A DNA stretch of 64,000 bases from Takakia lepidozioides (GCA_030704615.1 CM060732.1:32178001-32242000), one strand, 5' to 3'; shown: positions 2,397-42,645, counted from the first letter of the stretch. The notes: generated by a model not told the origin, from the sequence alone. Translations and numbers: made by a program.

Positions 2397-2575
2397 CAAC
2401 GACGCAATGGCGTGAGCGTTGCACGTGAGCGCGCGAGCGTACGCTCACGCAGGAGTGACGTGGCGTGAGCGTACGCTCACGCCAGCTGACGTGGCGTGAG
2501 CGTCATGTCAGCATGCTGATGTGGCGGTAAATGATGACGTGGCACTGTCCGTCAACTGCCACGTCAGCATTAACA
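2397..2575. repeat. left terminal/subterminal repeats of the outer MULE (CGTGAGC and TGACGTGGC motifs)
   Basis: Multiple GGCGTGAGCG / CGCTCACGC and TGACGTGGC copies. The same motifs cluster at 27755-27854. Confidence 0.8.
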
Positions 2576-3019
2576 TGTGCCGCCTATAACCGTGGATGGT
2601 CCTATTACCGTGGAATTAATGCAGGGAATCTTGCCTAAATAGAATCAAGACGAGCGTTGAGGCCTACAATTGCAGCATCCAACATTGTGCAATTACAAAT
2701 GCTTGTTTCACTTTTACAATTACGAAGACGACAAAATATCCTCACAAAGTGTGCGCCATAAAGGCTGCCACGAGAAGACTTCCTCCCTCCTCAAATAACA
2801 ATGAGAGTTATGATCATCTTCAAAAGATGATTGTAGTGCATAGCGACAGCAAGACATGTAGACTTCGAACGGTGCAATGACAAATGTGCACTACCTAAAA
2901 GTTGTCACTCAGACCTCACTCCGTATAGTTGGAGGCCATATCATTGCACAGCCGACGAATTGATGTGAATTACACATTTCAAATCATGGTCATCCACATA
3001 CCACATTACATAGTTCATG

Positions 3020-6000: not shown

Positions 6001-6533
6001 ATTCCCCGCAACTCACTTTTGAATCCAGCCATTCCTCCCAACGCCCGCAATTTTGGAATGACACTACAAATCTCTTCTTCATCAGCTTCTGCAACCACAG
6101 TAGGAAGGACTGGATTTGGAATTTCACTTATGTCATCATCGGAAGAATCCGAAAGCTCAACGATTGGAGTGGAGGAAGTCTGTTCTTTTTTCACCACCAC
6201 CTCCCTCTTGTCTTCAACGACCGAAGCAGCAGTCCCGGGCGTCACATATGACCCAAGGGACTTTCGCCGAGGCTCTCCAAGTACTCTGTATCGACCAGGA
6301 CGCACTCTCCACTGGCTGATATGAGCCGTCTCATCACGGTTTTGGAAAGAATATTTCACCAACTTCCCTTTCAGATCGTAAACCTCTTTCTCCAAAAAGA
6401 TGGAGCCATTCTGCAGCTGAAAACGGGTAGCCAAGACATGTTCCAGAACAATTGCAAATCCATTGTCAAGGACTTCCTGGGAGAACGGCACTGGTTTGTC
6501 GTCTGAGAAGAACTCCGCTTCAGAGGAAGCCAT
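3020..6533 (-). pseudogene. MULE-family DDE transposase with GCM-like Zn domain and C-terminal SWIM finger (outer element)
   Basis: HDGHPW..CNGHLRC...C..C..H..H (GCM/WRKY-like), FLMFDHVKRV, FMADSAQA, CLFHW (CxxH), NLAETVH and SWIM CTCPDF..CKH. GT-AG intron 4520..4404. The 3' part has frameshifts and a TGA at 3302. Confidence 0.85.
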
Positions 6534-8112
6534 CTTCCTTCCTCGAGTATGTTTGTACCTTGCTATCGCAGATCTAGTGTAAATCGGTTTACTGCTGTCT
6601 CCAGAACACAGTTGAAGAATGAGCAGAGCATATGGCGGAGGAAGCTCAGATAACGACTGTGCATATTCTGTTATTCATTCCAGATATGCAGCCGTCCATT
6701 TTAATTACTTTTCTTGTGGGCCCAGTGGTCAGAGAATCCCTAGGGGCAGTGTCGGCAACTGTTAAACCGTTAATCAGAACCTCATCAATAAACCCAATAA
6801 CAAAGCCGACTTCCTGGAAGCATGCCACAGGATCTGAGAATGGGATTGCAGATTAAGTAAATGTATCTATATACTACTACCAATGATCATGCGCACCTGG
6901 AAAGTTCCAAATGTGAAACGAATGTGGGGTTTGGATAACAAGGATGACCGTGTATGATATTCCAAAATTTGTCATCAAACTCTCGTTCATTTATATTTAT
7001 TTGTTTAAGACTGCGCATCAATTTCTGGGATTCGCTGTTCTTTTTAAATATTGAACCCGTTATAATAAAGAACATGCCGTTTTTTTTGGGCGGCACACGT
7101 CAGACATCCATAACTGAATACGAACAGCTGTACACCAATTGCTGGCATGTGCACTAATAAGGAAACGACTATGTGTAACGGTCACGCGGGAGGGAATCCG
7201 ATGCTTCTAGAGACACGCAAGAACACAGGCAATCCCGCAAGAAATCGGGAGTCACTGCGTTTTTCTACTTTTCGCGCTTAGAGGGAGAGTGGTAGTCAAG
7301 CTGGAGAGGGTTCCTTCTAGAATACGAAAGAGAAGAAAGTCTCTTTATTTTACTTCCCTTAGAGAGAGACGCAGAGCAAGAGAGAAAATGACGAGGCGTC
7401 GTTTGTTGGAGAACACAGGGCCAAGGCAGCAGGTGAACGCGGAGACTGATTCACAAGAGCAGACGGAGACTGAGGCAGCGGCTGCGACACAGTCGGCGAT
7501 AAGAGTGCGCCAGCCTGTGGAGGCAGAGATGAATCGTAGGGACACTGAAGAAGGTGGAAGCACGCGGAACGCCGAACCTGAAGAAGGTCAAGAAACCCTT
7601 GCGCAGACAGAAACTCTAGCAGATGTGAGAGGGAAGAGGAAAGCTGCAGAAGGGGATCAAATTTCAAAACCTAAGAAGGTGCCAGTAAGTTTTATCATAT
7701 AGTCTGTCTGATTGCCTTTCAAGGAGTCCTTCCTCTTCCATTCTTTAGCAGGAACTACTGAATCGCGAGCGTCGTTAACGCCATTCGATTCTCCTCATGA
7801 GATTTATGTACCTATGTGTTTGAAGAGAAAGTCTGCACTTACTATTCTCCCTAAACTACAATGATTGTCGTTGCCGCCAATCAGTCGCACAGGGGGCTGC
7901 TATTTCATGAGCGGCATGAGCATGAGCGGAAAAAAAAAAAGCATGAGCAGACCATTGTCAGTCCACGGAAATAGGGTTAGGAGGCACGGAAATAGGGTCA
8001 TGTGAAGTTGGAATGTGGCACCAGTGGACTTAAAATGCAACATTTTATTGCAAATTTTGTGGCAAGCCACGTCTATACAAGTGTGTTCTAACTGTCATAG
8101 CCGGAATGGGCA

Positions 8113-11100
8113 CTACTCTCCTACACCCTCCGAGGAACTTGCCCCACCTTCTTCCTCATCCCCCTCATCCCCCTCATCCTCCGAGCTCTGTGATGCATCA
8201 GTTCCACTATGCCTCTCAAAAATCCCGTCCTCTCCTTGGGGGACTGTCCACCTCACCTCCTGGGAATCTTCTGCGTCTTCTCCCCCACTTTCCTCAGCAG
8301 AATCCAACACAAATCTACGAGCCCGACGGGCTCTAATAGCTGCTGCCTCCTCCCTCATCTTCATTTTCTTGAGGCTTGCCTCGTCTAAAATCTGCTGTAC
8401 ACGACTACGTTCGGAACACCTCCTAATGGACACCGAAGCAAGCCGGGCAGCATAAGTAGGCAGGATGTACTCCCTTTCTGGACTAGGCATGAAATCTCCC
8501 CTGGCAAAAAAAGGCACGTTCCTCCTGCCCATGAACTCCGGTGTAGACGTCCCTCCGGCAGTACTTGGCATCCTACAGTAAGAACAAATCCACTTGAAGA
8601 ATGTCAATACCAGCACAACCAGAAAGGGTTTTCAATGAAATAAGAGAGCGGAGGGAGGTGCCTCACAAAATCTGGAGGCAACTTACAATGCCACCACTCA
8701 CTCGTAAACCGGGGGCTCCTCGGCCTCGATCCCAACTTCCTCCCCCTGCTCCTTCTCGGATTTTTCCTCATCCTCCGAGGATGCCTCTTCCTCTTTCAGC
8801 AGACGTTCAGCCGCTGCAAGTTCCGAGTTGTGGAGGGCAGTATCTGGCTCGAAGGCGAACACATGCCTGTCGGACAACGTCCCTGCCCACATTGAAGCAC
8901 CTGAGGAACAAAGCGGGCGGTTAATAGCTTGCGGCATGCAATTGCAATGGGGCCAGGGGACAAACTGAGCACGTGAAGGCTTACCCGTGCCGCATGTGAG
9001 GTCCAGAATCCGCCCTTGGACATCCGAGCACGTCTCCATGAGGGTTTGGATGAAAGCAGGGCTTCGGGTCCGGCTGTACCGCCACGGTTTGCCTGTCTTT
9101 GTGTCCTTCGGCATACTAGAGTGGGGCACATAGTTGTAGAGGACATCGTAGGTTACAGGGTCCACAGCGGCATCAACAAGACGACCGTCGTTGCGGAATT
9201 TGAACGTAGACCCTCTCTTCACAAAGCAATATGCCTCAAACACCAATGTCTGCACATCCAACAAAGAAGGGATCAATTCCAGGGTCTACTTAACATACAC
9301 CACAATATGAAGTGAATGCAATAGATTGATAACTTACACTTTGGCCCTCTGTTCGCAACCCCTGCGTACTGATGCAGAACCATTTTCTGAGGAGGACCGG
9401 GGTGACACTTTTCGGTGTCCACCTTGCCACCGCATTCTCTGTGGTCTTCCCTCTCGTGGCAAGGACAACCACACATCCACCGTCATCCAGAAGCATCCCC
9501 GCCAGCCCAAACCCGGCTTTCCAGTAGTCCTCAGTAAACCTGTTCCAGGTGGGCACACCATCCAGGCCCTCCAGCAGCTCCCCATCTGGAATGTCGAGGA
9601 GAATCATGTCGCAAGCTCTCTCCACCTCAACCCCCCCCCGAGTGCTCTTGCAATTCGTGCTCACAGCCGTGAAGAATTCCATCATGGCTTCAAAACCAGG
9701 GGTGTCTTTAGGCTCTGTACCGGCAGCCCTCTTCTTGGCTTTCCCCTTCTGCTCCGCCAGAGACTTGTTGTGTGCCACCTTCTTCGCCCTGGCAGCGAGA
9801 GCGTCAAGGAAGCTCTCATTGACGCATTGGATGATGGTTGGAGGTTCTAGCTTTGGCCTGTGCGTAAACGTCACCGCCGAATACCGCCGTGTAGGCTCGC
9901 CCTCAAATGCCAACTTCTTGGCAGAGCCAGTCCCACTCCGAACTGACTTGGGAACCCGGACGACCGGTGACTGGGTAGGAGCAACAGCAGTCGCAGGACC
10001 TTGAACAAAATCGGCGTCGGAGTCACTCTCTTGGGTCCCCTCCTGCGCCTCCTCCGATGCCCCGATGGTTTTCTTCTTTTTGGGTGTTACTGCAGTCACC
10101 TGTTTCCTTGTCCTTTTCCTTTGACCTTTACTCTTCTCATGCAATTTCTCCTGAATTCCTGCCTGAGCAAGCTCTGCCGCTTTCCTGGAGTTCGCAAGCG
10201 CTTTTGCCTCTTTTGCACCCAACGGAGGCAGCGGAGCCCGGTTTCGTCGGAATTCAGCATCCAGCTTCAATTGAAACTCGGATGGGTCGAGCGAGCCGGG
10301 CGGAAGGTCCACATACCAAGGGCAATCACGCAAATGTTCCAGATGCCACTCCTTCACAATATCGTCAGTGTACATGGAGTCAGCCCCAGGGTTCCTCCAT
10401 GCCAGGAAGAATGGTGGCTCGAAAGACAGATGACCTTTCTCCAAAAGCGAGAACTTACAGTACCTGCATTCATGAAAAACCCAATGAGGTCCGAAAATGG
10501 CTAACTCCCTGAACGGCAATAGGGCCTACAACTGGAATATGGCGCCGAATTTCCACTTCAGGGCCACCCAGTGTAGGGACTTAGCCCGAAAATGGCTAAG
10601 TCCCTGGACGGCAATACGGCCTGGAACTGGAAAACGGCGCCGAATTTCCACTTCCGGGCCAGCCACCCTAGGGACTTAGACCGAAAATGGCTAAGTCCCT
10701 GGACGGCAATAGGGCCTGGAACTGGAATATGGCGCCGAATTTCCACTTCAGGGCCAGCCAGTCTAGGGACTTAGCCCGAAAATGGCTAAGTCCCTGGACG
10801 GCAATAGGGCCTAGAACTGGAATACGGCGCCGAATTTCCAGTTCCGGGCCAGCCACCCTAGGGACTTAGACCGAAAATGGCTAAGTCCCTGGACGGCAAT
10901 AGGGCCTGGAACTGGAATATGGCGCCGAATTTCCACTTCAGGGCCAGCCAGTCTAGGGACTTAGCCCGAAAATGGCTAAGTCCCTGGACGGCAATAGGGC
11001 CTAGAACTGGAAAACGGCGCCGAATTTCCAGTTCCGGGCCAGCCACACTAGGGACTTAGCCCGAAAATGGCTAAGTCCCTGAACGGCAATAGGGCCTGGA

Positions 11101-14100
11101 ACTGGAAAATGGCGCCGAATTTCCAGTTCCGGGCCAGCCAGTCTAGGGACTTTGCCATTTTCGGAGCCCTGACTGGAAATTCGGCGCCATTTTCCCTAAC
11201 ACCACTTAGGCCTCTAACATCCTGAAATGCCAGGACTTGAAAGAAAGGCAGCGCGTATGTACCTGTACAGAAGGCGCATTGCTGCTTTGTCCGCGTTCGG
11301 CTGGTCGGTGAACTCGTGGCTCCGGCGAGCATCTGCTATCTCCCGAAAGAATAGGTTGGTTTTGTAGAGCAGAAAGTACCTCGTCACATAGTCACGCAGG
11401 CTCTCTGCTGCAGGAGATATCTCCATCTTGAACTGATGTGCTTGTGTGTCCAGCTGCTCTTGCGCATTCGTCGTCACCTGTGGAGATTGTCCATCAGATC
11501 GCTTTCCTCAAAAAATACAATGAATCAACCCCCTACTAGAGTACAAGCCCCAAACGAAGCGTGGGGAAGTACCTGAAACCACCATGTCATGCGGTTCATC
11601 CACATGTCGAATGTGGGGTCAGAGAGTTTGTCCGGTTTGGGGAAGCTCCACATGTCCCTGGTACTTTGGGAACCATTCCAGATTTGGAGCCACCGGGTCT
11701 GTCCAACCACCCAGCATATTCGTAAGCGCCAAACACCACAAAAAGGAGTTGTTGCCACCACAATTTGGTTAAGAATGTATCACCTTTTCTGTTGCATCCA
11801 CACAGGATGTGGCTAGACGATGGAGCTTCTCCAATGTCATCGTGGGCTTCAGAGCGCGAGAGTAGTGCTTTCCCACCTCCACCAGAAAGTCGGCACCAAG
11901 GGCGGGATCAGCTATGGCCACGTACTTTACCATCCGCGACTTGTACTTTATGCGGGCCCTCACCTCCGCAGCTTTGACATACGATTCGAGTTCCGGGAGG
12001 GTTGGATTCTTCTCCTCTGACTCCATGTAGAACCTCCGCGCATGTGCCAAATCCTGCTGTATTTTCGTCTGTCGAAAAGCAGCACATAAGATTAGAGATC
12101 CTGCTCAACACAATTTCTTCTATTGGGGGGAGAGACAAATTAGCTCAACAAAACTGCAGGAGCTTTACCCGAAATATGTAGTCCACCATGGCGTCGACGC
12201 TCAGCCTATACCAGGTTCTGTCTGCCTTTGCCTCCGACTTGCGCAGGAGGTCGGCACTGAGGGAATTGGCAAACTCTTCCACCCCCTGCCTCCCGACATC
12301 CTTCACTCGGAAGAGCATATGGGACAAGTTGGTGGCAATGAAGGCATTCTCAGTCACCCTGCAGTGCCACATTTCCATCAAACAATACTGAAATGGGAAT
12401 TTTCATCATATATGAGGATTCGCAATGAAATGACTTCCAAATTCAAAGTCCAAAAGCGAGAGGGGTTGTAGCTTACGAGTTGATGTCGGCCATTGCAGCT
12501 TTGAGAAGACTGCGATCTTTGGGCCCCGCAACCTTCAGCACAACACAATCGACGGCGAAATGCCAATCGAGATCGTTGGGGTGGGCTTGGGCAATGTGCT
12601 CCATCCATGCCAGGAGGCGATGATTGCCGTCCCACACGTAGAACATCTTACCGGACATGTGCTGGAAAAGAGGATCACTAGCAATCGATCTCTCGAACTC
12701 CTCATTTCGCGTTTGCCAATGGGGACCCCATTTGTCCACCTCATCGGAAGTGTGGGCACGGGAAGCTCCGTGGTCGTTCTCAATGGAAACGTAAAAGGCG
12801 GCAGACCCCATTCGATATCCATCCCGGAAAGAGAATTTCAGCTTGTCGATATCGCCTGGGAGGGCAGGTCTCACCACCTGCAATGACACCAAGCGGCAAA
12901 GGGGAATTCGAAGCTTGGCCGGGTACACCATGCCCCCCAGCACCCTGCCAATGTTGCTGTGGGTTGCCTCCAACATCTTGGCAGCGGCCAACTTCATATC
13001 CGCCTCAGACATGACGTCTGCTGCAGAGGGGTTTTCCGGCAGCCCACCAAGACCGCCAAATCCAGCCTGTATGCTCCGGGTTTGGGGCCTGGGGATGTCC
13101 GGGAGAATGTCATCCTGGTCAGAAACATCCATGTCGTCCTCCTCAACAGGGTCAGCCACCTGCGAAACCACCTCCAGCACTCTCGTCGTCTCTACTGCCC
13201 TCTCCCTGGCTTCACCTCGAACTTGCACAATCGGTGCTCTTTCAGGTGTTCTTTCCTCTCCTCCACTCTCCACCGTATGGGTAATTGCGGGGGCTGCACT
13301 TGCCCGCGATGGTCTAACCGGTGTGCTACTGCCTCTCTGTGGTGTCTTGTAGGGATCCACCGTCTCTGTGTGTCCCTCGCTTACATTGGCATCTGTCATT
13401 TGGGCACCCCTGGCCTCTTCAGCTGCCTTTTGTCTTTCCTCCTTGCTAGCATTCTGTCTCGTCTGTTCTTTTGCCCTCTCTTTTGCCCTCTCACGGGCTT
13501 TCTGTTTCTTACTAGGGCTAGCAACAGGGGAGCCCTCCAGGACGACCACCTTTGATTGAGGCGAACTGACACCCTCGCGCGCACTGCTCACTCCCCCCTC
13601 CGCAGCCCGTGACTGCTCTCTCGCCGGGGATTGCATGTGCTTAGCTTTCTTCTTTTTCTTTGCGTGGGCGGGCCCTACTGCATGTGCATGAACAACCTCC
13701 ATTGCCGGATCTGCTGTCCTCATGTCCTCACGCCCTTCACCTGCCATGCCGCCTGCACCAACCTCCCCAATGCCTACTCTATCGTAATCTCGTTGCAAGT
13801 CCTCCCGTCCACCAACAAAAGATTTAAGTTTGCCCTCTCGCCCCAAGTTGGGCGATTCAAACATGCGATGAGTTGGAGCTGTCGATGATACCACCAGCGT
13901 GCCGGGCTCGTCGTCACTCTGTGATTGACAAAAATCGTGAACACCAACAGTGGTGCAAAAAGCAGCAGCGCAACCACCATAGCAGCAATCATGTAGCAAA
14001 AATGAAAACATAACAAGTTTAGGAAGTATGGAGAGCCATGCAACAACAATGAAAACAAATGCAACCATTGCCTAAGAATGACATGCACAAGCAGCCTTCT

Positions 14101-14343
14101 CCAGAGCTGCCGGATTTGCACACGCATTGCAAACAATCTAAGGTTCAGTCAACTATCTAAAGTTCACTCATAAAGCAAAGCCAGGATGAAGATGCAGAAA
14201 CAAAGCGAGGTAACGAAGCGAAAGCAAAAAAAAAATCGAACAAACCGAAAGCAGAAGTGGCTTGCCTGAGAGTACTCGGCTTCAGTTGGCGCAGGTTGTG
14301 AGCAAGACACTGGAATCTCCTGCTGGAGCTTCAGTTTGGCCAT
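8113..14343 (-). CDS. inner-element ParB/Srx-like domain fused to a beta-class N4C/N6A DNA methyltransferase fold; spliced, roughly 1,400+ aa, apparently intact
   Basis: Exons ~13920-12477, 12358-12169, 12068-11784, 11698-11573, 11477-11263, 10463-9338, 9249-8985, 8900-8702, 8572-8113. All eight GT-AG junctions are phase-compatible. YVWDGNHR (12617-12631), MILLDIPDG (9581-9595), LLDDGGCVVV, RSPAFIQTLMETCS..GRILDLTCGTGAS..RHVFAFEPD. The 5' start is uncertain. Confidence 0.82.
10491..11155. repeat. 7 x 95-bp tandem repeat (190-bp dimers) inside an intron of the ParB-MTase gene
   Basis: CCGAAAATGG at 10491, 10586, 10681, 10776, 10871, 10966 and 11061. Each unit has GGCGCCGAATTTCC and an inverted CTAAGTCCCT..AGGGACTTAG pair. 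Confidence 0.95.
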
Positions 14344-14669
14344 GCGAGAGATTGGCCGTCGTCCGTAGTACAGAGCTTTCAACTTCCGCCGCGGTCTGGA
14401 TCTGAGGTCTCTCTCAGGAGAGCCACGCCCTTCAGGCGGCATAAGTCCCAGCCAAAAAGATCTCCTTTTTTGGGGTACATGCCTGGAATACCATGTTAAG
14501 CCAAGTATAGCATGAGATTTAGGGTACGTGTCCAGGAAGCCATGCGTCGCCAGCCCGAATAATAACCGACGGCCGTCGACATTTATTGCCCAACTGCGCA
14601 ATTAAATGTCGGATGAAGCCCTCCATGTCGGAAGAAAATAGACGAAAACAGTCCCGGAATTTCCCTCAT

Positions 14670-15100
14670 GCAGGTAATTCGGAAGCGCCCGGATGGAAAT
14701 CCGGCGCCGAATTTCCATCCGCGCAGGTAGGGCGGTGCGCCAAATTTCCTTCAAGCAGGTAATTCGGATGCGCCCGGATGGAAATCCGGCGCCGAATTTC
14801 CATCCGCGCAGGTAGGGCGGTGCGCCAAATTTCCTTCAAGCAGGTAATTCGGATGCGCCCGGATGGAAATCCGGCGCCGAATTTCCATCCGCGCAGGTAG
14901 GGCGGTGCGCCAAATTTCCTTCAAGCAGGTAATTCGGATGCGCGCGGATGGAAATCCGGCGCCGAATTTCCATCCGCGTAGGTAGGGCGGTGCGCCAAAT
15001 TTCCTTCAAGCAGGTAATTCGGATGCGCCCGGATGGAAATCCGGCGCCGAATTTCCATCCGCGCAGGTAGGCCGGTGCGCCAAATTTCCCTGAAGCAGGT
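14670..15100. repeat. 5 x 85-bp tandem repeat with near-perfect palindrome GGATGGAAATCCGGCGCCGAATTTCCATCC
   Basis: GGATGGAAAT at 14691, 14776, 14861, 14946 and 15031. Confidence 0.95.
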
Positions 15101-16720
15101 AATTCGGCGCCGAATTTCCATCCTGCAGGTAATTCGAATCGTGGATGAATGGAAATTCGGCGCCGAATTTCCATCCTGCATGTAAGTCGGATCGGTGCCA
15201 TATGGATATTCGGCGCCGAATTTCCATCCTGCAGGTAATTCGAATCGTGGATGAATGGAAATTCGGCGCCGAATTTCCATCCTGCAGGTAAGTCGGATCG
15301 GTGCCATATGGATATTCGGCGCCGAATTTCCATCCTGCAGGTAATTCGAATCGTGGATGAATGGAAATTCGGCGCCGAATTTCCATCCAGCAGGTAAGTC
15401 GGATCGGTGCCATATGGATATTCGGCGCCGAATTTCGATTCGCCATTTATTTCTGAGCGAGGAATTACCTTCGTGCAGGTAATTCCCAAATAAGAATTAC
15501 CTTCGTGCAGGTAATTCGCATACAAGAATTACCTTCATGCAGGTAATTTCCAGATGAGAATTACCTTTGTGCAGGTAATTCTGGACGAGGAATAAACATC
15601 GATTGGAATTACCTGCAGGAAGGTAATTGTCATCTGGAAATTACCTGCACGAAGGTAATTCTTGTATGCGAATTACCTGCACGAAGGTAATTCTTATATG
15701 GGAATTACCTGCACGAAGGTAATTCCCCGTTCAGAAATAAATGGCGAGTGGAAATCCGGCGCCGAATATCCATACGGCACGGATCCGACTTACCTGCTGG
15801 ATGGAAATTCGGCGCCGAATTTCCATTCATCCACGATTCGAATTACCTGCAGGATGGAAATTCGGCGCCGAATATCCATATGGCACCGATCCGACTTACC
15901 TGCTGGATGGAAATTCGGCGCCGAATTTCCATTCATCCACGATTCGAATTACCTGCAGGATGGAAATTCGGCGCCGAATATCCATATGGCACCGATCCGA
16001 CTTACCTGCTGGATGGAAATTCGGCGCCGAATTTCCATTCATCCACGATTCGAATTACCTGCAGGATGGAAATTCGGCGCCGAATATCCATATGGCACCG
16101 ATCCGACTTACCTGCTGGATGGAAATTCGGCGCCGAATTTCCATTCATCCACGATTCGAATTACCTGCAGGATGGAAATTCGGCGCCGAATATCCATATG
16201 GCACCGATCCGACTTACCTGCTGGATGGAAATTCGGCGCCGAATTTCCATTCATCCACGATTCGAATTACCTGCAGGATGGAAATTCGGCGCCGAATATC
16301 CATATGGCACCGATCCGACTTACCTGCTGGATGGAAATTCGGCGCCGAATTTCCATTCATCCACGATTCGAATTACCTGCAGGATGGAAATTCGGCGCCG
16401 AATATCCATATGGCACCGATCCGACTTACCTGCTGGATGGAAATTCGGCGCCGAATTTCCATTCATCCACGATTCGAATTACCTGCAGGATGGAAATTCG
16501 GCGCCGAATATCCATATGGCACCGATCCGACTTACCTGCTGGATGGAAATTCGGCGCCGAATTCCATTCATCCACGATTCGAATTACCTGCAGGATGGAA
16601 ATTCGGCGCCGAATATCCATATGGCACCGATCCGACTTACCTGCTGGATGGAAATTCGGCGCCGAATCTCCATCCATCCGAGATTCCACTTACCTGCTGG
16701 ATGGAAATTCGGCGCCGAAT
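15100..16720. repeat. large inverted-repeat array: 53-bp monomers (106-bp dimers) on both sides of a symmetric 4+4 block of 24-bp palindromes
   Basis: ATGGAAATTC at 15801, 15854, 15907 and onward (~18 monomers to 16720), with ~6 inverted monomers at 15100-15435. GAATTACCT-N6-AGGTAATTC at 15462, 15494, 15526, 15558 and 15606, 15638, 15670, 15702. Unique spacer 15582-15605. Confidence 0.95.
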
Positions 16721-16770
16721 CTCCATCCGGGGATGGTCTCTGTCGGAGAGGTGCCGCCTCTCCGCCGCTC

Positions 16771-17370
16771 TGTTGGATATTCGGTGCCGAATTTCCGTCC
16801 CGGGGGTTGAAATATGACTGCCAGGTTCCGTCCTCTCCCCCCTCCCCGACTTCATTGGAACGGCCCCGAATTGAAATTCGGCGCCGTTTTCTCATCTGTG
16901 GAGGTTTTTATGTCGGCCAGTTTTCGCTCTGACACGCCGACAACACTTCCTTTGGGGGGGCCCGGATGGAAATTCGGCGCCGAATGGCCGTCCAGGGGAT
17001 GTTCTCTGTCGCACACTGGCCGGCCTCTGTGCCCCAGGCGACTTCATCCGGGCGTCCCCTGTTCGATATTCGTTGCCGAATTTCCGTCCGGGGGTTGAAA
17101 TGTGACAGCCAACTGCAGGCCACTCCCCCCTCCCCGACTGCATCCGAATCGCCCCGGATGGAAATTCGGCGCCGTTTTTCCATCTGGGATGTTTTTATGC
17201 CGTCCAGTTTTCGGCCTGACCCCCCGACACGACTCCCTTTGGGGGACCGGATGGAAATTCGGCGCCGAATCTCCATCCAGGGGATGTTCTCTGTCGCACA
17301 CACTCCGGCCTCTGCGCCAGAGGCGACTTCATCCGGGCTTCCTCTGTTGGATGTTGGGTGCCGAATTTCC
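16771..17370. repeat. two diverged ~290-bp tandem units, each with three GGCGCC-type palindrome variants
   Basis: TGTT(G/C)GAT(A/G)TT...GCCGAATTTCC recurs at ~16771, 17060 and 17345 with collinear intervening sequence. Confidence 0.8.
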
Positions 17371-17675
17371 ATTCGGGGGTAGTAATGTGACGGCACGGTG
17401 CCGGCTTATCCCCTTCAGCCGTCATCATCCGGACGGCCCCCCACTTTCTGACTGCATACCGTTGGCAGTTATTGCGCAAAGACGAGGGGCCGCATTCCGG
17501 AGACAAGGTTCATTAACACTCTGACTGTGGATTTTTGAGATAGTTGGCTCCCTGGATTTGGATCAGGCTTCGTCGCTCGGACAAATCGGCATCGCATTCA
17601 TTCCCATCGCTGCACCCCCTTCTACCAGGGAGCTTCCCCGCACGCCATCCTGGCAGTCTTGTGTGCACATCTCCC

Positions 17676-20600
17676 ATGGCGGAAAACCCGAGCGCTACAG
17701 TGTACTGCCCTCCTCACGAGCATAGAGCTTCATTTCCGTGCAGAGGGACACCTGCCGGGTGATGGAGAAATATCTGTGCGTTCGATACCACCTGAAACCG
17801 GGGTCGGTTTTTTTTGGAGGAGGAAAGGAAGGACTCAAACGGCCTTGTTGTCGAGAGTATTGTTGTGCTCCACGATGATTTCGGCGATGGCAGGGAATGG
17901 CGAGTTCCACCATCGGACAGCGTCATATACAGGGCTGTTGGGGACTTCATTTGCCCGCCAAATGCACCGTCTATCCTGGCGCCTTCCACGAAACAATCCG
18001 CGAATCAGAGAGTGGGTACCTCAAAGAGAGAAGTCCGCAACGAAGTAAATCCAGAGCCGAACCCATCCATGAAGACGACCGAGAACCGGGTTGTTCACAA
18101 CCTGTCCGACTCAGACGAGGTCATGGAAGTTCCGAGGTCGTCCTGGAGATCAGGCAAGTCCTCAATGGACGTCAGTGGAGGAGGGAGTCATATTCCCAGC
18201 ACGAGCACCGCAGTTCGATCTATTCTAGAAATTCTGCGAGGGCTTCACCTGGAGGGACACCGGTCGGAGCTGGCCGGGCTGGACTACAGCATGTTCGCAA
18301 TTAAATCGGTTACATGCCTTCCCGCCGACGTCGACGGTAATGTCTTCTTTGAGTTCCCTCCTCGGGCGGACTACTCGAGGGCGTCCGGAATGTTGACAGA
18401 TATGGATAGAAAACATGACGGTCATCCTTGGTGCGTTACCAAAACCACCAGCATGAAGATGCTTGATGGTGTGCGGGTGCGCTACGTTGTTTGTGCGGGC
18501 ACGTTGCGGTGTTTCTCCCCAACTTGCTTCCACTTTAAATCCAGAGGTCACAGGAACGAGACCGATTGGACAGGCACAGCTCACCAACCATTTCGAGCTC
18601 AGGAAAGGTTCCGAACTCCACATTTAAGTGTGCGCATTGCAAAGAACCACCACACTGCATGTCTGTTTGTAATGCCAAGCAGTTCTATGTGTTGCACCGT
18701 TTCCCTGACCTCACCCGAGCTTGCATACACGTTGGTTCCCATTGTCACAAATTGGCGAGGGGGAACTCGCGGGAGGCTGCCCACGAAGCAGAGCAGCTCG
18801 TTCAGGAGGAGGTTAAGTTGAGACGGGGGTGCCAAAACCCAAAAAGATACAGCTCCAAGCCGCCCCATAAGATGGCATTGGCCAGATTATGTCGGAGACG
18901 GCTCGGATAGAGTTCCTCTCGACGAGAAGGAATGGAGGCATTGCTCGAGTCGGTGTCCCCCGTAGTTCATCACATCGAATGTCCGAAACCACATTGTCCT
19001 CTTGCAAACAGAAATTGGGCGTGGCCGGATATGCCACTCCATTCTGGAGGTGAAGCGACGATGTGGATATGACTACATTCGTGGAAGTAGGTTTCCAGGA
19101 CAAGGGACTGAGGCAGATCGTTGTTTCGTATTCAAAATGTCCACGTGTGGACCTGGCAGTGGCGTCGCTGGTCGACAGGATGACGAGTGGGAACTTGTCA
19201 AACTTGGGTCATGTTCGACCATATCAAGCGAATTAACAAATCACCAGTGGGTGACAATGGTGGCAGCATGTCTACGACACCCACTGCAGGATGCTAATGA
19301 CATGCTATTTGTGAGATGAAAGGAGAGGACACACAATCGGAGATGCTTCTTTGGCATGGAATAAACGACAGATGGCCAAGGCGGGATTGCCCCCTCCCAA
19401 TTTCCGTGGTTTCATGGCGGACAACGCACAAGCAATTGGGCTGCCATCCGAGGGTGTACGGGCAAGACCCCAATGTTTCCCATGGAAGGCAAGGAGAGAT
19501 CTTGTGGGTTCCACTTTCTGCAGAGCCTTTCGCATACACAACCAGGCTTCGTGGCGCCAGATTTCAGAGAGGAGCACCCGTTCCATGTGCCTTGCGTGGA
19601 AGCGCGCTCCCACCTTGGATGATGCAGAGACACAGTTTTGCATGCATACGGGCTTGGTGGACATCGTCAGGTGCTGTAAGGAAATCAGACGAAGGAGCAA
19701 TGGTCAGTTGGCTAGCATGGTGGCATTATCGTTTCCTCCAGTTCGGCGACTATATGCGGGAGGTGAGTTGCACGAATTCCTGTCCCGTTGGATATTATTC
19801 TTGCTATTTTGTAACTTGCTTTAACCTCATGTGCTTGTGCAGGAAATGTGTCTCGACTCCGACACCGACATGCCCACGACAAACATGGCCGAATCAGTGC
19901 ACTCTTCCTGGCGTGCGTCCTCTTGCGGCGCATCTGGTGGACATCCTCACTGCCACAACGGAGGACATTGTGAGGTCAATTATGCAGCAATGCAGGTCAA
20001 CATACGATTTCTTGAAAGGGAACAGTGGGGCTTGGGCCGGACAGGCAGGAAATGCTGAGGCGGACTGCCTCCAGATCGAAGAATCCTCGAGTGGGCGGCG
20101 GCCTTTGCGAGAGGCCTTCGGGACACGCCATTTCTGCGAAGAGGCCAACATTTGGAAGGAGATGTTCATACCCGTCCAGTGAGACGAAGACTTGACGAGG
20201 CACCCTGGCGGAAGAGGATTCATGGCGAGCTGACAAGAATATTCGCACGCTCCCTCGTGGTCCGGTGATGTTGTCCGAGGAGGTCTCGTCGAGCACCGGA
20301 AGTCCTGCACGTTCAAGATCGCCATCTCCTTTGAGCACAGGGCGCGTGCCCCGGCACATAAAGAGCCATCTGTAGTAAAGCAATACAACATTTCCATTGT
20401 GGAGACAAGAGTGTCGGAGTCACAGTGGAGAATTGCGAGGACATTGCGGCATTTCGAGGAAGTGTTGCGCCATCCGGGTGGATACGAGAGCACGCTGTGG
20501 TGAGATGATTCGGAGGAACCCACACGGTGCTGGTACCTGCACCTTGTTTCATCAGCGGCAGATTTTTGACTCCCACATTGCTCACGCCACAACGCAGACA

Positions 20601-21260
20601 TTTTGGTTCTGTAGGCACGACATAATGACATGTGGTATTTGGCAAGCCCAAGTACGGGATTCAGGGAATGCCGGAGCCTCCGGCGTCTGGCCTGTTGCAC
20701 CGGGTTGCAGCCCCTCTCTCAGAATGAGGCGGATGCTCTATCTGCGGCGTTTCGAATGGTGCAACGCACAGACATCCCGGCCCACGCATTTCCGGTTCCT
20801 CAGACCAAAGCCATTGCATACTGCTCGCTCCAGTAGAGACGGATTGGACAATTCTGGCACATCCCACAATGCGATTCGAAGAGTGAAGAGACGACACCCT
20901 CCCAACAAGTTGAATGAGACTCGGATTGCCAATGCTCTTGGGATGGCTTGCACTATTCAGAGCTCCGTGGACGTACCCCCCCCCACCCGGCCTTGGGCGT
21001 GTGTATCGGATGGCAACGGCCCGGCTCGGCTGTACGCGACGATGTATACACAATTACGATTGGAGTGAAGCCGACTTGCAACTGTACGGACTTCTCGTTG
21101 ATGGAAGCAAAGAAGGGTTCGAAGTATTATCCGTGCAAGCATCTGTATTACATTTACCTGAAGAGGTTGAGGATGAACTGGACTATTGATGACTTTATTC
21201 ATGCAACCCCGCGTTGAGCGTGAACGAGCTGCACAAACTCCTCCTTCTTAGGGATTCCAG
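17676..21260 (+). pseudogene. MULE transposase with GCM-like domain and SWIM finger (inner element), many small indels
   Basis: MDRKHDGHPWCVTKT, CAGTLRC, FVFKMST, FRGFMADNAQA, WLAWWHYRF, NMAESVHSSW, FWFC and PTCNCTDF..PCKHLYYIY. Collinear with the outer transposase and has the same intron position (~19763-19842). Confidence 0.85.
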
Positions 21261-21419
21261 AAATCATGATGGGGCAAACGAAATCCTCCATATGGATTTT
21301 TCAAATGCATTTTTGCTGTATCAGACTTTTTTTTTTTTTGGCAGTGTAATGAATGCACCCCAAAACTCCTGGAATGAGGCAATATTCCCATTCAATGAGA
21401 TCCAACAGAGCAGTTTTGG

Positions 21420-21665
21420 GGCCATTTCTGGAAAAATGGCGCCGAATTTCTCTTTTTGGGGCCGAAAACTCGCTAAGTCCCAACATGCACTGGTACCCTG
21501 TGTTTTGGAAAATGGCGCCGAATTTCTCTTTTTGGGGCCGAAAAATGGCTATCCCCCAACATGCACTGGTACCGTGTCTGGAAAAATGGCGCCGAATTTC
21601 TCTTTTTTGGGCCGAAAACTGGCTAAGTCCGAACATGCACTGGAAAAATGGCGCCGAATTACCTG
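21420..21665. repeat. short array (~4 copies) of GGAAAAATGGCGCCGAATTT units related to the 95-bp repeat
   Basis: Shares GGCGCCGAATTT, GGGCCGAAAA and GCTAAGTCC with the 10491-11155 unit. Further degenerate cores extend to ~21790. Confidence 0.85.
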
Positions 21666-24129
21666 TCATGAGGGGACCTATACCGCGGAAATTCGGCACC
21701 ATTTTCGCCAGAGAGACCTATTGGACCTATTGCCGCGAAATACGTCGCCGTTTTTTCAGGTTACGGACCCTATTACCGCAATTCGGCGCCATATTTGCAC
21801 ATGTCGCTAGGAATTGGCTAGCGGAAGACAAAATATCATGAGCACAACTGTCAAAGTGCAATTTTCCCTTCAAGGGCCAATAATTATTTGGTTTTTCTGA
21901 CACATTGCATAAATTTGTTTTTTTATTGTTTTTTTTTTATTGTTTTTTATGTGTTTTTATTTTCGAAATTTGTACTTCTGCTCATGAAAACCGATTGTGT
22001 TACTACTCTGCTCATGCCGCTCATGCCGCCGCCTGCCGCTCATGCTCATGAAATAGCAAACCTCGTTGCACATATATGTCATTACACAACACCGATCCGG
22101 CAGGTTGTTTCTTTGTGATTGTCGTTACAGCCGTTCCTATCGCTCTCGCTCGCTTTGTTTTGAATACGGCAGTCTCGGCTTTGCATGTGTAGATTGTGCA
22201 ATTCTTTCACACCATTCATGGTGAGTTTCCTTGATACAGAGTGATTGTCGTTACCCCCATACCGATACCGCCATTTCTATTTGCAAATCACTTAGTCAGA
22301 ACTGATGGCATCGTTCAGAAACTGTGAGGTCGAGCCTACAGGATCAGAGGGAAAGGATCTGGAGATGGGGACGAGTCCGCAAAAAGCTCAGAGAATACAG
22401 ATGAAGCAGATGAATCCGAAGTGCACTACCTTGACAAGGTGAAAGAACTCATGTCATTCCAGAAGGTAAACTCTCAGGAGGTTATCAGGAGGTGACATGC
22501 CGTATCTGGAGGGCGTCTGGAAGCCTCTGTGCCGGATGATATCAATGCCTGTTGTGCGTCACTCTTTCTCCCATGACATAACAAAATTGGAGAGTGATTT
22601 TGTGCATGGATATAGACTTGGTGCACAGTTTTTTATGTGTCACTGACGGATATAATGGGGAAAGCACATTAGTTTCTCCAGAGATCAGATGATACCTGGG
22701 ATGATGCTGGAAGATGCCAATGAGAGTTCGAGCTGGCCTCATGATGGGAAAGAACACCCAGCATTCTGGCAACCACATGTTCTAACGTCTGGGACGCAAC
22801 CAACCGATATCTGGCAATGGATGGATACATTCAGAAACACCATTCGAAAGACAAAGACAAGCATTTTGCTGTGGAGGCAATGGTTTTGGATCCGGAAACG
22901 ACATCGCTAGCTTCTTACAGCTACCCCGTGACAAGTAAGTCATCCAGGAGATTTGATTCCCTCTGTAGTGTCTTGTTAATCCTCAAAAAAAGGTGTTAGA
23001 ATGCAATGTTTCCAATGTTTTTGCAGATCAACAGAGAAGATCGCATGTGACAACAAGCTTGGTTCACACACTATTCCGAATTCAGAGGATTGGTCTGATG
23101 AGCTGGATGATTTTCGGACAGTACTACCACCCAATATCATCAAAAGTGCGAAACAGGAAGAGCTGCAGGCACTTGGTATTCTTTGACACGAGAGGCTTTT
23201 CTGGAGTACATGTATGCGGTAAGCCCGAGTCTGTAACTGTTTACTTTTCGAATACATGTTTTAGAGTCCCTTCGGAGCTAATCACTACTTGAATGAATGC
23301 AGCAAGAACTGGCAGAGGCAGCTGAGAAGGAAAATCCGAAATTTCCGCACTACACCAGAGGACTAATGACATCAAAGGTGTGGAAGCTGCAATAAAGAAG
23401 GAGTTTGAGATGCGAGAACAATTGATGTCAGCTTCGGAAAGCAGCTTAGAATAGTAGATCCTGGACTTGGTCCTGAGTTCCTTCATCAGCAGATCAAACA
23501 CACTATGACAAGCATGTGCATCCGGAGATGCAGCAGGAGAAATTGCACCGGCTGGCCATATCGATGGTCGACCCACAAACAAAAATAAGGTGGCTGGAGA
23601 TATGGAACTCAGATCAAACAGTAAAGGACTTGAATCAGTTCCCAAGAGCACCATACAGCCTGGCACACAAGGTGGAAGGAATTAGTGATTTGGTGTTTGA
23701 TAACTGGCTCCACAAGGCTACATTTTGGAGTCAGGTGTGTATTCGAACATGCTGTTTCTTCTCTCTTCAGTATGTGATGTGTATCTTTTTTTGCAATCTG
23801 ACAAATATACTATTTGCAGCTCGAAAAGCGCGTCGTCATTGTGCTGGATCAGACTTTGAAGGACCTGAACATTGCGATTGTTTCCCTCCCCAAATGTCAT
23901 TGGAGGCACCATAAGGAAGTGGAGAGGTCTCAACACCTGGAGATACTTTTTTTCCGGGAGTTCTCCAAAGATGGAGTAACATTTTACGTCGTCAACGACT
24001 TTGACAGTCAGTTGGAGGAGAGTGGGCCATGAGCGAGTTGTGTACAGGTGCAATGTCATATTTGAAACTCTACTACTGTTTTGTTGGAAAAAATGTGGCT
24101 TCATATGGATTGCAATCTTAGATCCAGAT

Positions 24130-24845
24130 TGAATGTCATTGACGACATTCACTTCTTTGTCTAAGTCATTCTTAGCGAGTATATGAATTCACCTGTTTAG
24201 GATCTAAGGGTGCAATTATATTGTCCCTGATTAGAATTGATAATGTCCTTGAATGGCGTTGACGACATTCACATACGGAGGTTGTTGAGAGGTCCTCAAG
24301 TTATTTAAATTTTTGTAATGTCCATAGAGGTTACAGTGAGGGTCCTCACTTCATTTTGCTGATGTCAGGCAGACATTCAGTTGTTCTGCATTGTTTTTTC
24401 CTCTTGCGATGAATGTGGAGGCTTGATAGCTCTGTTTTAAGAAATCCAAAGTGAAATGTCGTTGACGACATTCACAGCTGTGTCTGTATTATTCAAAAGC
24501 GACAAATTCAATTTAATGGATTGGGGAGCTAAGTAATTGGTTTCTTTTTGTATTTTTTGGGATGGCGTTGACCCATTCACATACAGTGATGTTTGTGAGG
24601 TCCTCAGTGATAGGTTCGTTATGAATGTGCATTGAGTTTTCCTGGATGGTTCCTTAATCAATTTTTTATTTCCATCCTGTGATTTTGCTTCATTAAGTAA
24701 TAATTTGGCTTCATTCTTGATGTCGTTGACGACATTCACTTCTATGTCGTGTCATTTCTAATCGATTATTTGCATTCACCTGGATTAGGATGATTTACAG
24801 TGTCATGGAATGAATGTTCTGAATGGCGTTGACGACATTCTATCT
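24130..24845. repeat. dispersed array of the outer element's palindrome GAATGTCGT-TG-ACGACATTC in an intron
   Basis: Copies at ~24131, 24251, 24454, 24561, 24719 and 24821, plus a degenerate one at ~24361. Confidence 0.85.
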
Positions 24846-27800
24846 GGAGCAGTAGTGTGGTCCTGAAAGGTCCTTGAGCAAGTTGTCAGAGCCATTTCAA
24901 TCCATGTTTTATTCTTTCTGTTCTACTTGCATCTTACTCACTGAGCGTTTTTGTGGGTTGGGATTTATCTCCTTTTTTCAGGTACACGAAATATGTGCTT
25001 ATGGAAGGAAATCACCTGAGCGGAATTCCCGACTATCTTGACATGTGGTCGGACCCTGCAAACGATCCAACCATGTATACTGCAGGGATATTGAAGGACT
25101 GGAGTCCTTCTCACTTCAGAGACTGTGGGTGGTACCTTGACTGCCCACCTGAGCACACGACCTTTCAAGAACAGCATATGAAATACTTGAACAATAACGC
25201 TGAGATGCTGGCGCCTTTGACTGACGAAGAGTATCAACGAAACATAGCAACCTTGGCTGCCAAGGAGCCTGATGCTCAGGGAACGCCGCAGAAGGGAAAG
25301 AAGGCGGGCCGCAAACCAAAAGACAAGGCTGTTGATGTCATAGCCATCTCACCAGCAAAGCCAAAGGACAAAGACAAGTCCAAAGAGAAGGAAAAGGACA
25401 AGGGGAAGGAGAATGAAAAGGAGATGGAGAGTGGGCAGGACTTTAGTGCTGGAAGATATACCCGTACTCTTCAGTTCGTGTTCGATGCCAAGCCACACCC
25501 TTCCCGTTCTGATTCAGCAGGAGAGATGAAAATTGTTTCGATGATGCAGAGTCGAAAGAGAGGATACACTGGGGTGCCATCCCCTACCTGGGACAATATA
25601 ATCTCATTCCTCAATCTGGTGAGAATTCCAGTTACTTTCCTTTTCTCTGAAAGTTTCGTTGGCAGTATTTCAGTCTCGTTCTTTGAAAACATTCTTGCCA
25701 TCGTTCTTATAAAAAACATGTCTGTTGCAGGTGAGCACAGGTCCCACCTTCGTATGCGGTGTGCAGAAAACTTATGCGGCCGACATTGTCATTCTCGACA
25801 TCCCGGATGGCCAGGCTGTGCCAGAAGTTCTTCAAGGGCAAGACGCCAGGCTGGAACAAATTCGAGGACAACTACGGGAGTTGGGTGTTCGGGTTCTGTA
25901 ACAATTTCCTCTCTGATGCAGGGACACTTCTGCTTTTTCAGTCATGTGACAATGATAGTCGTCGGGCATTGGCATCATACCTCAAGTCTTCAGGGTTTGA
26001 AGTTTTGCGCACATGGAATTGTGTGAACAGCCTCTACCTTGTGAAAGGGGGTTTCCCTGGTCAGCTGGTATGCCGTCTCCCTTCTGCTTGTGCTTTGATC
26101 ATGAGTTTCAATTTCTCTGCAGCTCCACTCTAGTAGAATGTTTTATGATCGACACCGATCATCAACGATTCATGATTTTTTGTGTGTCAGAGTTCTGAAT
26201 AGCCGATGTACACACTTCCACTTTAGATTGTGTTTACCACACTAACCTGCTATCTTTGGCAGACGAGGATGTTCGAGGCGATCTGCCTGCAGAGGATTCG
26301 CACATCAAAGACACCATCCTCCATCCGCAACTTTGAGATTTCTGACCAGGGTTGTTTCGTCAAACCCCCCTATGAGCCCCATGTCGATGACATTTTGTAC
26401 AACTTCATGCAGTCTAGTTAGACTCTGAAGAGACCAGATGGCACTCCCTGGAGAGGTGCAAAGGAAAAGTCACCAGCATTCATGCAAATACTGCTGGAGT
26501 CATGCAGCCACCGCTCTGCACGGGTGGTCGATCTTTCTGTGTCCACAGGTTCGTTTTTTCCCTTCCGAATTGGTTTCCTTTCAACAGTTTCATCTGCTTA
26601 AATCCCCCCTCCAAACTGTTCATGTTCTCCTGTCTGGTGCAGGAGCAACTTACCACGCATGCAAGGCAGGCGGAAGAAGCCTTTTTGGCATGGAGGGTGA
26701 TTCTGACCTCTACAACACCGTGCTCTTCCCCCTTTTGTCTGGCTCCACTTCAGGCACACAGACTGATCGGATTCAAATTCGAAATGATGACGATCCCGAA
26801 GATAAGCAGGTCGACAACGACTTTTCATGTGAGTAAGTGCTAAACCCTCTTTGGGAGTCATACTCAATTTCTCGATAACATCAAAGTTACAGTAATAACT
26901 TTTTCAGGCTGTCTTTCAGGAAAGCCAGCGGTGGATCTTCAGGAGATACAGTCATTTCTGGCAAGTCTGTTTTTGACAGCCCCCTTTCCAATTTTCTGCT
27001 CCCTGTTTATGCCGAAGCAATGGCACTTCACGCGGCCGAGTCCCTATCCCCTGACTTTTTAGTGGCCAGCCGTAGGTGTATCCAGCGTGGATCCGGTGTT
27101 CTAAAATACTTAGACTTAGATGCAGAGGAAGAGGGGATACATTGTACTGACTCTGAGTCAGACTGAACTGTATTCTTTTAATATTCATTTTCATATTATC
27201 TGGAAAACGTTGAATCCCCTTCCTCTACCGTAGTTGTTCCTTTAGAACAAATAATAATCACAGAATCAACTTTCGTTTAAATTGCTATTGTATGAATCCA
27301 TCTCACAAACCTTCCTGACTCTTTTCATATCCATTGTGCATTCATCTACACTGTATTCATGCGTGCTCCATTCATGAAAGCTTCCTTTGTACAACATCCA
27401 TTGTACATTCATCCTCTGTACTCTTTAATCCACCCCACAAACCTTCCACACTCATTTCATATACTTTGTGCATTCGTCAAAAGATTTGGTCATGCATCTT
27501 CCTGTCATGAATTTTTGTCATTGCTCAACATCCTTTATACATTCATCCATTTTACTCTTATCCATCCGTCATTCATCCATCTACATACATTTTCCACACT
27601 CATCCATCTGTTTATCATCCAACTGTACATTCATCCATCCTTTATTCAATGCCTTTTATTATGTCGTCCAGCTTGTTTCCGCGGTAAAGGGTGCCAATCC
27701 GCGGGAATACACTCCACTTCTTTCTGGGTGCGTGGTGACTTGGCCTTCACGTGTGATGACGTGGACTGAGCCCCGTGACGTGGCATTTGCGCAAGGTGAC

Positions 27801-27854
27801 GTGGCGTGAGCGCAGTTGCGCTCACGTGACCAGGCTCACGCCGAGGCATCCCTG

Positions 27855-27863
27855 GTTGGTATC
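27855..27863 (+). repeat. right target-site duplication GTTGGTATC of the outer MULE
   Basis: Identical to 2388-2396. Confidence 0.9.
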
Positions 27864-42179: not shown

Positions 42180-42645
42180 CCCAAGCCCTCCAACACTGCA
42201 CCCCACTCCCAAAGACCTCGGATCACGAGCATTTTCCTCTCCTGCGTCGACGTTCGCTATGTCTTCTCCTCTCTCTCTCTCTCAGGACGCTCCTTCCACC
42301 ACGTCCAGAATCCCTCCTCCAAATCCAGATGATGCCTTCCGCTGCTCTGTCCTCCAACACTGCACCCCACTCCCGAAGACCTCGGATCACTAGCCTTTTC
42401 CACTCTCGCATCGACTTTCGCTATGTCTTCTCCTCTCTCTCTCACGACGCTCCTTCCACCATCCCTTCTCCAAATCCAGATGATGCCTTCCGCTGCTCTG
42501 TCCTCCCACACTGCACCCCACTCCCGAAGACCTCTATCTCATGACGCTCCTTCCACCATCCCTCCTCCAAATCCAGATGATGTCTTCCGCTGCTCTGTCC
42601 TCCCACACTGCACCCCACTCCCGAAGACCTCGGATCACTAGCCTT
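42180..42645. repeat. imperfect tandem repeat, 4 copies of CACTGCACCCCACTCCC(A/G)AAGACCTC with ~100-165 bp units
   Basis: Copies near 42194, 42358, 42508 and 42606, with shared CCAAATCCAGATGATG. Confidence 0.85.

Follow-up and report, generated by a model that had tools for sequence, protein, structure and literature searches.

Nested, probably Mutator-like elements in Takakia lepidozioides with element-private palindromic arrays and accessory genes for a predicted ParB/Srx-fold domain

Results

Two nested elements, each with a diverging gene pair

We analyzed a stretch of 64,000 nucleotides from Takakia lepidozioides (GCA_030704615.1 CM060732.1:32178001-32242000; the whole stretch is called the window, and positions are counted from its first letter), in which two transposable elements lie one inside the other and each carries, in an intron of its accessory gene, a tandem array built around a short palindrome of its own. 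A protein-level self-comparison showed two homologous gene pairs in mirror order within the 64-kb window. In both pairs a transposase-like gene and an accessory gene diverge from each other. Because the inner pair has one gene of the outer pair on either side of it, one element is nested in the other, in agreement with the nesting proposed in a preliminary description of this DNA. The elements and their genes are as follows.

2399..27854: outer element, likely Mutator-like, with an 11-bp direct repeat and palindromic terminal repeats
4467..6674, minus strand: transposase-like gene T of the outer element (P0002), an open frame of 735 codons
7389-7683: possible first exon of the outer accessory gene
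7873..22115: inner element, likely Mutator-like, in inverted orientation inside the 5' part of the outer accessory gene
8698..14071, minus strand: inner accessory gene, eight exons, worked out from the sequence
17796..21214 (17802..21214 in the feature entry), plus strand: inner transposase-like gene T', decayed
22470..about 26850, plus strand: outer accessory gene, ParB-like and methyltransferase-like (MTase-like), decayed

The outer element is bounded by a perfect 11-bp duplication, GTTGGTATCCA, at 2388-2398 and 27855-27865, and both of its termini carry palindromic repeats of the GGCGTGAGCG type. For the inner element we found a candidate 11-bp target duplication, TGATTGTCGTT, at 7862-7872 and 22116-22126, together with inverted end motifs, TGCTATTTCATGAGC, at 7898 and 22058. 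Because a third copy of the duplication motif lies nearby at 22242, the exact ends of the inner element are uncertain. The target-site duplication of the Mutator superfamily is 9-11 bp long, and the lengths seen here, 11 bp and perfect for the outer element and 11 bp as a candidate for the inner one, fit that range. The end motifs of the two elements are related to each other (CATGAGCGG and GGCGTGAGCG), as are copies of CGG[AT]AATAGGG. Subterminal motifs resembling the latter occur in both elements, at 7964-8000, 21700-21790, 2590-2615 and 27680-27700; these are candidates for sites of the transposase and differ from the private palindromes described below.

The T protein, P0002, has 9 homologues in the protein collection, its relatives are encoded in 340 metagenome-contig stretches, and the homology to T in the self-comparison spans 3023..6674 on the minus strand. 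The protein carries Cys/His-rich stretches. No Pfam match was obtained for P0002 or its 9 homologues, and the transposase profile A1 found no match among PDB sequences. In a language-model feature search (Atlas), which we use as a lead, clusters of Mutator-like elements (MULEs) ranked first for P0002 (0.93, with 160 shared features). Because these MULE features go together with an 11-bp duplication, both elements are likely to be Mutator-like, with no profile match for T. The inner gene T' carries in-frame stops and several frame changes. As judged from its sequence, the window holds two nested and distantly related elements that are likely Mutator-like, and in both of them a transposase-like gene is paired with an accessory gene.

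In the inner accessory gene every worked-out exon is open and every intron is GT-AG. Its start is provisional, and its 3' end would lie at 8698 or, with a further exon, at 8113. The stop codon at 8698-8700 shares bases with a strong GTGAGT donor, and ATG CCA AGT is preceded by an acceptor; the gene may thus have an extra 3' exon at 8113-8631 (minus strand) or an alternative end there. In the outer accessory gene, the frame with homology to exon 5 stops a few codons before the donor (24047) and ..ERVVYR| is found in another frame. A further break affects the following exon; DIPDG and KTPGWNKF are in different frames, and one or more frameshifts come after DIPDG, near 25800. The inner and outer accessory proteins are about 33% identical. 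Decay of the two elements is complementary: the inner one has a dead T' and an open accessory gene, and the outer one has an open T and a frameshifted accessory gene. That the accessory gene is intact where the transposase gene is dead may reflect selection on the former, for example through action in trans or domestication. A homologue search with the protein of exon 6 found nothing, and neither did a search for its C-terminal part among longer proteins.

Both accessory genes hold a palindromic array in the same intron

Four regions of the two elements contain tandem arrays.

10464..11262, minus strand: inner intron, with a 7 x 95-bp array and, in addition, a second palindrome and a single motif copy in inverted orientation
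14658..17391: central arrays, between the diverging inner genes, with periods of 85, 53/106, 32 and 285 bp
21427..21700, plus strand: 3' array of 74-bp units with the inner motif, ~360 bp from the right terminal motif
24048..24981, plus strand: outer intron, an old degenerate array of 6 units around GAATGTCGTTGACGACATTC

The inner intron splits an Arg codon after its second base (..LLYR|YCKF). The donor reads CTG TAC AG|GTACAT, with the intron starting at 11262, and the acceptor reads ...TGCAG|G TAC TGT AAG TTC, with the last intron base at 10464. Tandem Repeats Finder (TRF) placed its array at 10491..11156, with a period of 95, 7.0 copies and 91% matches. The 14-mer GGCGCCGAATTTCC, which is half of a perfect 22-bp palindrome, GGAAATTCGGCGCCGAATTTCC, was exact in 7/7 units, and an inverted copy follows at 11175-11188. 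The 95-bp unit also contains a second palindrome, AGGGACTTAGCC-N7-GGCTAAGTCCCT.

The splice sites of the outer intron, GTG TAC AG|GTGCAA (start 24048) and TTTTCAG|G TAC ACG AAA TAT (end 24981), put it at the same codon position and phase as the inner intron. Here the 20-mer GAATGTCGTTGACGACATTC was present in five copies with at most two mismatches, all in one orientation, at 24131, 24251, 24454, 24718 and 24821. A degenerate copy was seen in unit u4 of alignment A2, a five-mismatch copy at 23984 in the upstream exon, and a related copy at 7767-7786 in the 5' part of the outer gene. Its 12-mer core, GTCGTTGACGAC, had 8 matches with at most one mismatch, compared with 0.09 expected. When the six units of this array were aligned (A2), mean column identity was 46%, the 20-bp motif was almost invariant, and most of the 18 invariant columns fell inside it. 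The only 10-mers that occur at least four times in the outer element belong to the terminal GGCGTGAGCG repeats (including the GAGCGTACGC spacer) and to the intron palindrome.

The preliminary description had placed a 7 x 95-bp array in an inner intron at 10464-11262, an intron at the same codon position and phase in the outer gene, and 6-7 copies of a palindrome in the latter. The splice sites and the TRF result bear out the first, the splice-site reading the second, and the third corresponds to five good copies, one degenerate copy and the five-mismatch copy in the exon. The presence of arrays in both introns was confirmed and is far beyond chance.

Each motif is private to its element and is kept in different repeat units

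We determined how often the two motifs occur outside the introns. Allowing one mismatch at most, the inner 14-mer had 81 matches, compared with 0.03 expected: 8 in the intron, 68 in the central arrays (14695-17370) and 5 in the 3' array (21438-21700). All of them lie within 10541..21700, that is, in the inner element, and the outer motif had no match at up to four mismatches inside 7898..22058. The earlier statement that neither motif clusters in the other element is upheld by these counts. Neither core motif was present in 80 related loci (689 kb in total).

The central arrays form a large palindrome at 14992-16186, with arms of ~0.6 kb that are 91% alike and a centre at ~15590, and they contain 8 copies of a second palindrome, GAATTACCT-N6-AGGTAATTC. 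The 14992-16186 palindrome consists of two nested kinds of palindromic units. The observed/expected ratio of CpG in the central arrays was 1.31, compared with about 0.5 in the surrounding sequence, a value that fits a young age and freedom from cytosine methylation alike.

The inner motif appears in five unit designs (95, 85, 106, 285 and 74 bp) distributed over three non-coding compartments. In every pairwise comparison of these designs, the best common stretch was 13-28 nt around CGGCGCCGAATTTC, showing that the motif, rather than the surrounding repeat unit, is what is kept. Because the motif is all that the five inner designs have in common, and because the outer motif is near-invariant in a decayed array, this conservation points to selection on the motif as a putative binding site. 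No copy of the palindromes lies at the inner element's left end. Given this absence, and given termini that bear other motifs which are related between the elements, the palindromes are unlikely to be transposase end sites; of the proteins that the element encodes, the accessory protein would then be the likeliest binder. The resemblance of the cores GGCGCC and GTYRAC to restriction-modification sites, to which the preliminary description drew attention, is uninformative, since for most short palindromes there is an enzyme that has them as its site.

The accessory protein contains a predicted ParB/Srx-fold domain

Two parts of the inner accessory protein could be given a label.

12477..12949, minus strand: predicted ParB/Srx-fold domain, with a near-invariant G-N-H-R motif
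8701..9700, minus strand: PF01555-like region, MTase-like by the order of its motifs in the sequence

A HMMER search of a representative library with the ParB-like exon found 502 relatives at E <=0.001, mostly exon-sized fragments. The AlphaFold2 (AF2) model of this exon, built from a 54-row alignment (A3), reached a predicted local distance difference test score (pLDDT) of 90.8. Its top Foldseek matches were all PadC, Srx, Noc, ParB and KorB, with probabilities of 0.99-1.00 and a best E value, weak in itself, of 0.014. With VIA-align the model was superposed on Caulobacter ParB (7bm8_A) at Z 9.3 with a root-mean-square deviation (rmsd) of 2.0 over 93 residues, and 14 chains were found at Z >=8. 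The model indicates that the accessory protein contains a ParB/Srx-fold domain. Residues G126-N127-H128-R129 are at least 90% conserved in the 54 sequences and are the putative equivalent of the GxxR box II / P-motif of ParB, with its conserved arginine. Twelve longer relatives of the ParB-like exon had no Pfam match. A parS-like role in partition was set aside: the element is chromosomal and nuclear, and no ParA-like gene was noticed among the open reading frames (ORFs) looked at, no search aimed at ParA having been made.

The C-terminal part of the inner protein shows, in order, LLDIPDG, ..DYW..GG.VVVL, LDLTCGTG|GAS and RHVFAFEPD, and we read this order as a permuted PF01555 arrangement by comparison with the consensus of that family. 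In the Atlas search, again as a lead, PF01555 was present in 28/30 named matches, with a top score of 0.91 and 158 shared features. The counterpart of the S-adenosylmethionine-binding glycine loop (FxGxG, motif I) is LDLTCGTG|GAS in the inner copy and LSVSTG in the outer copy. The MTase-like domain is split over 3 exons, and Pfam searches with single exons gave no match. An AF2 model of exon 7, a retained intron and exon 8 was unusable (pLDDT 50.5, from a 6-row alignment).

Related loci share the diverging gene pair

The relatives considered here are 80 metagenome loci, in which the ParB-like exon was found by local profile searches. The exon was present in 13 loci, always on the strand complementary to that of the transposase-like gene and, where this was checked, upstream of it. 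An intron in front of the exon encoding Y..F/WY.D.P was found at the same place in four loci, L040, L034, L043 and L046, with lengths of about 190, 135, 135 and 465 bp, respectively. Elsewhere, tandem arrays that contain inverted repeats were found in three relatives. L040 has a central array of 64 bp x 8 with 13-nt arms, GAGCTTGAAAACC; L054 has a central array of 169 bp x 6 with GGGGAGCT-N3-AGCTCCCC; and L043 has an array inside the accessory gene, at another position, of 51 bp x 5.5 with CAACTTTT-N6-AAAAGTTG. The diverging gene pair is a habit of the family, as seen in the 13 loci, and three relatives carry arrays with inverted repeats of their own. Counting of exact palindromes in the relatives found little, the copies being decayed.

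Discussion

Putative binding sites for an element-encoded protein

We tentatively read the arrays as clusters of element-private putative binding sites to which a protein encoded by the element would attach, the ParB-fold accessory protein being the most probable candidate; we rate this possibility high enough to prefer and still short of probable. A dimer of the accessory protein would recognise the palindromes through a putative DNA-binding part, and the protein would gather on its own element, as ParB does at parS or VANC at the VANDAL repeats. The gathered protein might then alter the local chromatin or the state of DNA modification, as anti-silencing or as self-marking, and only cognate copies would respond to the altered state. 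A more specific version, a nuclear addressing of the ParB/parS type, has the protein load at ~20-bp palindromes private to each subfamily and spread over its own copy, while the MTase-like domain writes or blocks a DNA mark and the sites in the intron of its own gene act as a feedback sensor; the palindrome alone would distinguish subfamilies that are nested or live in the same genome. We hold this version to be distinctly improbable.

Several observations weigh against the binding-site reading. The fold match covers only the nucleotide-binding N-domain of ParB, and no helix-turn-helix or other DNA-binding domain was found in the accessory protein. None of the accessory exons had a Pfam match, even at E up to 10, and when single exons and profile A3 were compared with PDB sequences, no match rose above chance level (actinin, selenoprotein S and eL24). 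Since one gene is broken in each element, the accessory gene in the outer and the transposase gene in the inner, neither copy is a complete working system. With TRF, the homologous intron was array-free in L040, L034, L043 and L046. We also compared 18 distinct relatives in which 4 kb or more precedes the transposase-like gene on its upstream side, counting arrays with a period of at least 20 and at least 3 copies. Arrays were present upstream of that gene in 4/10 relatives with a ParB-like gene and in 6/8 in which none was detected, detection of this gene in decayed copies being incomplete; because of these proportions, arrays are not tied to the ParB-like gene among the relatives. The catalytic motif IV of PF01555 has the consensus [DNS]PP[YFW], and both copies have DIPD in its place (LLDIPDG in the inner, ILDIPDG in the outer). 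The glycine loop is not kept in the relatives, which have LFAST, FTSST and INVS in copies that are decayed.

These observations limit what can be taken over from the preliminary description. Its proposal that each element fills the same intron with an array fails as a family rule, given the four relatives without an array. The idea of a private address, reasonable and supported in part, keeps the private motifs, the conservation of the motif and the ParB/Srx fold in its favor; it loses the intron rule, the link to the ParB-like gene and the DNA-binding domain. Similarly, the label ParB-MTase stands in its first half, for which the modelled ParB/Srx fold speaks, and its second half rests on motif order and one language-model look-up. 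Because there was no Pfam match, the fold was unusable, the motif is DIPD and the glycine loop is lost in relatives, a fair label for the C-terminal part would be MTase-like, with doubtful activity.

Arrays without a dedicated binder

The arrays may lack a dedicated binder altogether and be satellite-like expansions, to which the non-coding DNA of a large transposon is prone, or enhancer or promoter repeats for host factors. The palindromes would then be a consequence of the ease with which hairpin-prone units expand. Varied tandem arrays are found across the related loci, some of them without inverted repeats, as expected from such expansion. Only introns and intergenic DNA would tolerate it, and the choice of the same intron in both elements could be chance among 7 or 8; the array-free homologous introns of four relatives agree with this. 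What such expansion does not readily give is one motif of 13-28 nt in five unrelated unit designs and three compartments, an outer motif that is kept while its flanks drift, and two independent intron arrays that are both centred on a palindrome of ~20 bp. We consider this explanation somewhat unlikely.

Binding by the transposase

The arrays could also be bound by the zinc-finger part at the N terminus of the Mutator-like transposase, and would then serve as transposition enhancers or in transposase-driven activation of cognate copies. The Cys/His-rich stretches of P0002 would suit such binding, as would the position of an inner array near the right end (21427-21700) and the arrays upstream of the transposase-like gene in 6/8 relatives without a detected ParB-like gene, and the AtMu1 transposase is described as activating cognate copies sequence-specifically (10.64898/2026.08.24.746577). 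A transposase, however, needs sites at both ends, and the palindromes are missing from the inner left end. At their termini and subterminally the two elements have related motifs, which are not those of the palindromes; the palindromes themselves are unrelated. Moreover, the inner transposase gene is dead, and yet its arrays are 97-99% homogeneous. Binding of the arrays by the transposase is, in our judgment, unlikely.

A role as silencing substrates, in which hairpin RNA from the arrays would give small RNAs against the family as a device of the host or of a competitor, would suit the ~0.6-kb-arm palindrome, 91% alike, between the diverging genes (14992-16186) and an intron array that is 71-76% self-complementary, but it is very improbable, as the CpG ratio of 1.31 in the central arrays is unlike long-term silencing by 5-methylcytosine (a young age explains the ratio equally) and the conservation of a short motif in the outer array is left unexplained.

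Comparison with known systems

The closest known parallels to these genes and arrays are in algae. In red algae, PAG3, which joins a ParB-like part to a 2-oxoglutarate oxygenase, has adjoining tandem inverted-repeat arrays across Plavaka families, for which self-binding has been proposed, and the parallel to VANDAL is drawn explicitly in the same study (10.1101/2025.02.11.637652). In Ectocarpus, Sola1-1 encodes a ParB-like and DNA-methyltransferase protein that is transcribed opposite to the transposase (PMC12477816). The algal ParB-like accessory genes (Sola1-1_Ec32; the red-algal PAG2 and PAG3 of Plavaka, Mutator and Zisupton) resemble those described here in being carried by a large DNA transposon with opposite transcription, and in having a ParB-like domain that is fused or otherwise linked to the domain of a DNA-modifying enzyme (PMC12477816). 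They also have inverted-repeat tandem arrays beside the ParB-like gene (10.1101/2025.02.11.637652); in the window, and in L040, L054 and L043, such arrays lie beside or within the accessory gene. In contrast to them, the genes described here, which are likened to PAG2, PAG3 and Sola1-1_Ec32 by description, have a streptophyte host, a Mutator-like carrier, arrays also within a conserved intron of the accessory gene, and an MTase-like motif that reads DIPD. The idea of a private address is already published for algal transposons, and placement in the intron is not a family rule. Among the literature matches listed there was no ParB-like accessory gene of bryophytes or streptophyte algae, which is weak evidence of its absence from print.

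Closely related VANDAL elements of Arabidopsis differ in their motif, as do the two elements here. VANC, an anti-silencing protein, is reported to bind non-coding regions of VANDAL elements, and that system shares with ours a Mutator-like carrier and family-specific motifs that are tandemly amplified in non-coding DNA (PMC5735166, PMC10398659). The accessory protein differs from VANC in its predicted ParB/Srx fold and MTase-like part, and is not a relative of VANC as far as the missing Pfam matches show; its putative target motifs are palindromes of ~20 bp.

Bacterial and phage ParB-parS systems share with the elements described here the fold of the ParB N-domain and clustered palindromic sites; they differ in that we are dealing with a nuclear, intron-bearing eukaryotic gene that has no Pfam ParB match and no helix-turn-helix found. 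En/Spm TnpA is a non-catalytic protein that binds subterminal 12-bp repeats, often in inverted pairs, and affects methylation of the element. Its sites lie at both ends and have a role in transposition, whereas the arrays here are internal and asymmetric. Prophages are enriched in ParB-fold fusions to PF01555, and the phage fusions of ParB to N6/N4-methyltransferases show the same pairing of a ParB fold with a PF01555-type domain (PMC12704722). A ParB-like protein of a phage activates thymine dioxygenase on double-stranded DNA (PMC13229309), and chlorophytes and chytrids have a Dam family with an N-terminal helix-turn-helix of the ParB type (PMC4738411).

Should the accessory protein bind the palindromes, the locus would offer a natural specificity pair for self and non-self in transposons, with two diverged proteins and two unrelated palindromes in one place. 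The same test of specificity would tell whether eukaryotic nuclei have reused the ParB fold, familiar from chromosome segregation in bacteria, to direct the modification of DNA or chromatin, and it would extend the class of accessory genes known from brown, red and green algae to streptophytes and Mutator-like carriers. As it stands, the locus is a well-documented example and not a new principle.

Other features of the window

Just outside the outer element, an ORF of 498 codons at 27646-29142 (minus strand) encodes a retropepsin-like LLDSGA and FLDLFGGISTG, and had no Pfam match. The latter sequence resembles motif I of cytosine-5 methyltransferases, and the ORF may be part of a retrotransposon with a methyltransferase-like domain. 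A second ORF, of 689 codons at 36660-38729 (minus strand), had no Pfam match, and a third, at 60258..61490 (minus strand), matched the plant NPH3 family (E 1e-09). This match puts the window in the streptophyte lineage, and the GT-AG introns likewise mark it as eukaryotic. Local duplications or tandem repeats were also seen outside both elements, at 43243-44957, 34437-35608, 42187-42690 and 61936-62405, and include a unit of ~870 bp that is present twice with 79% identity.

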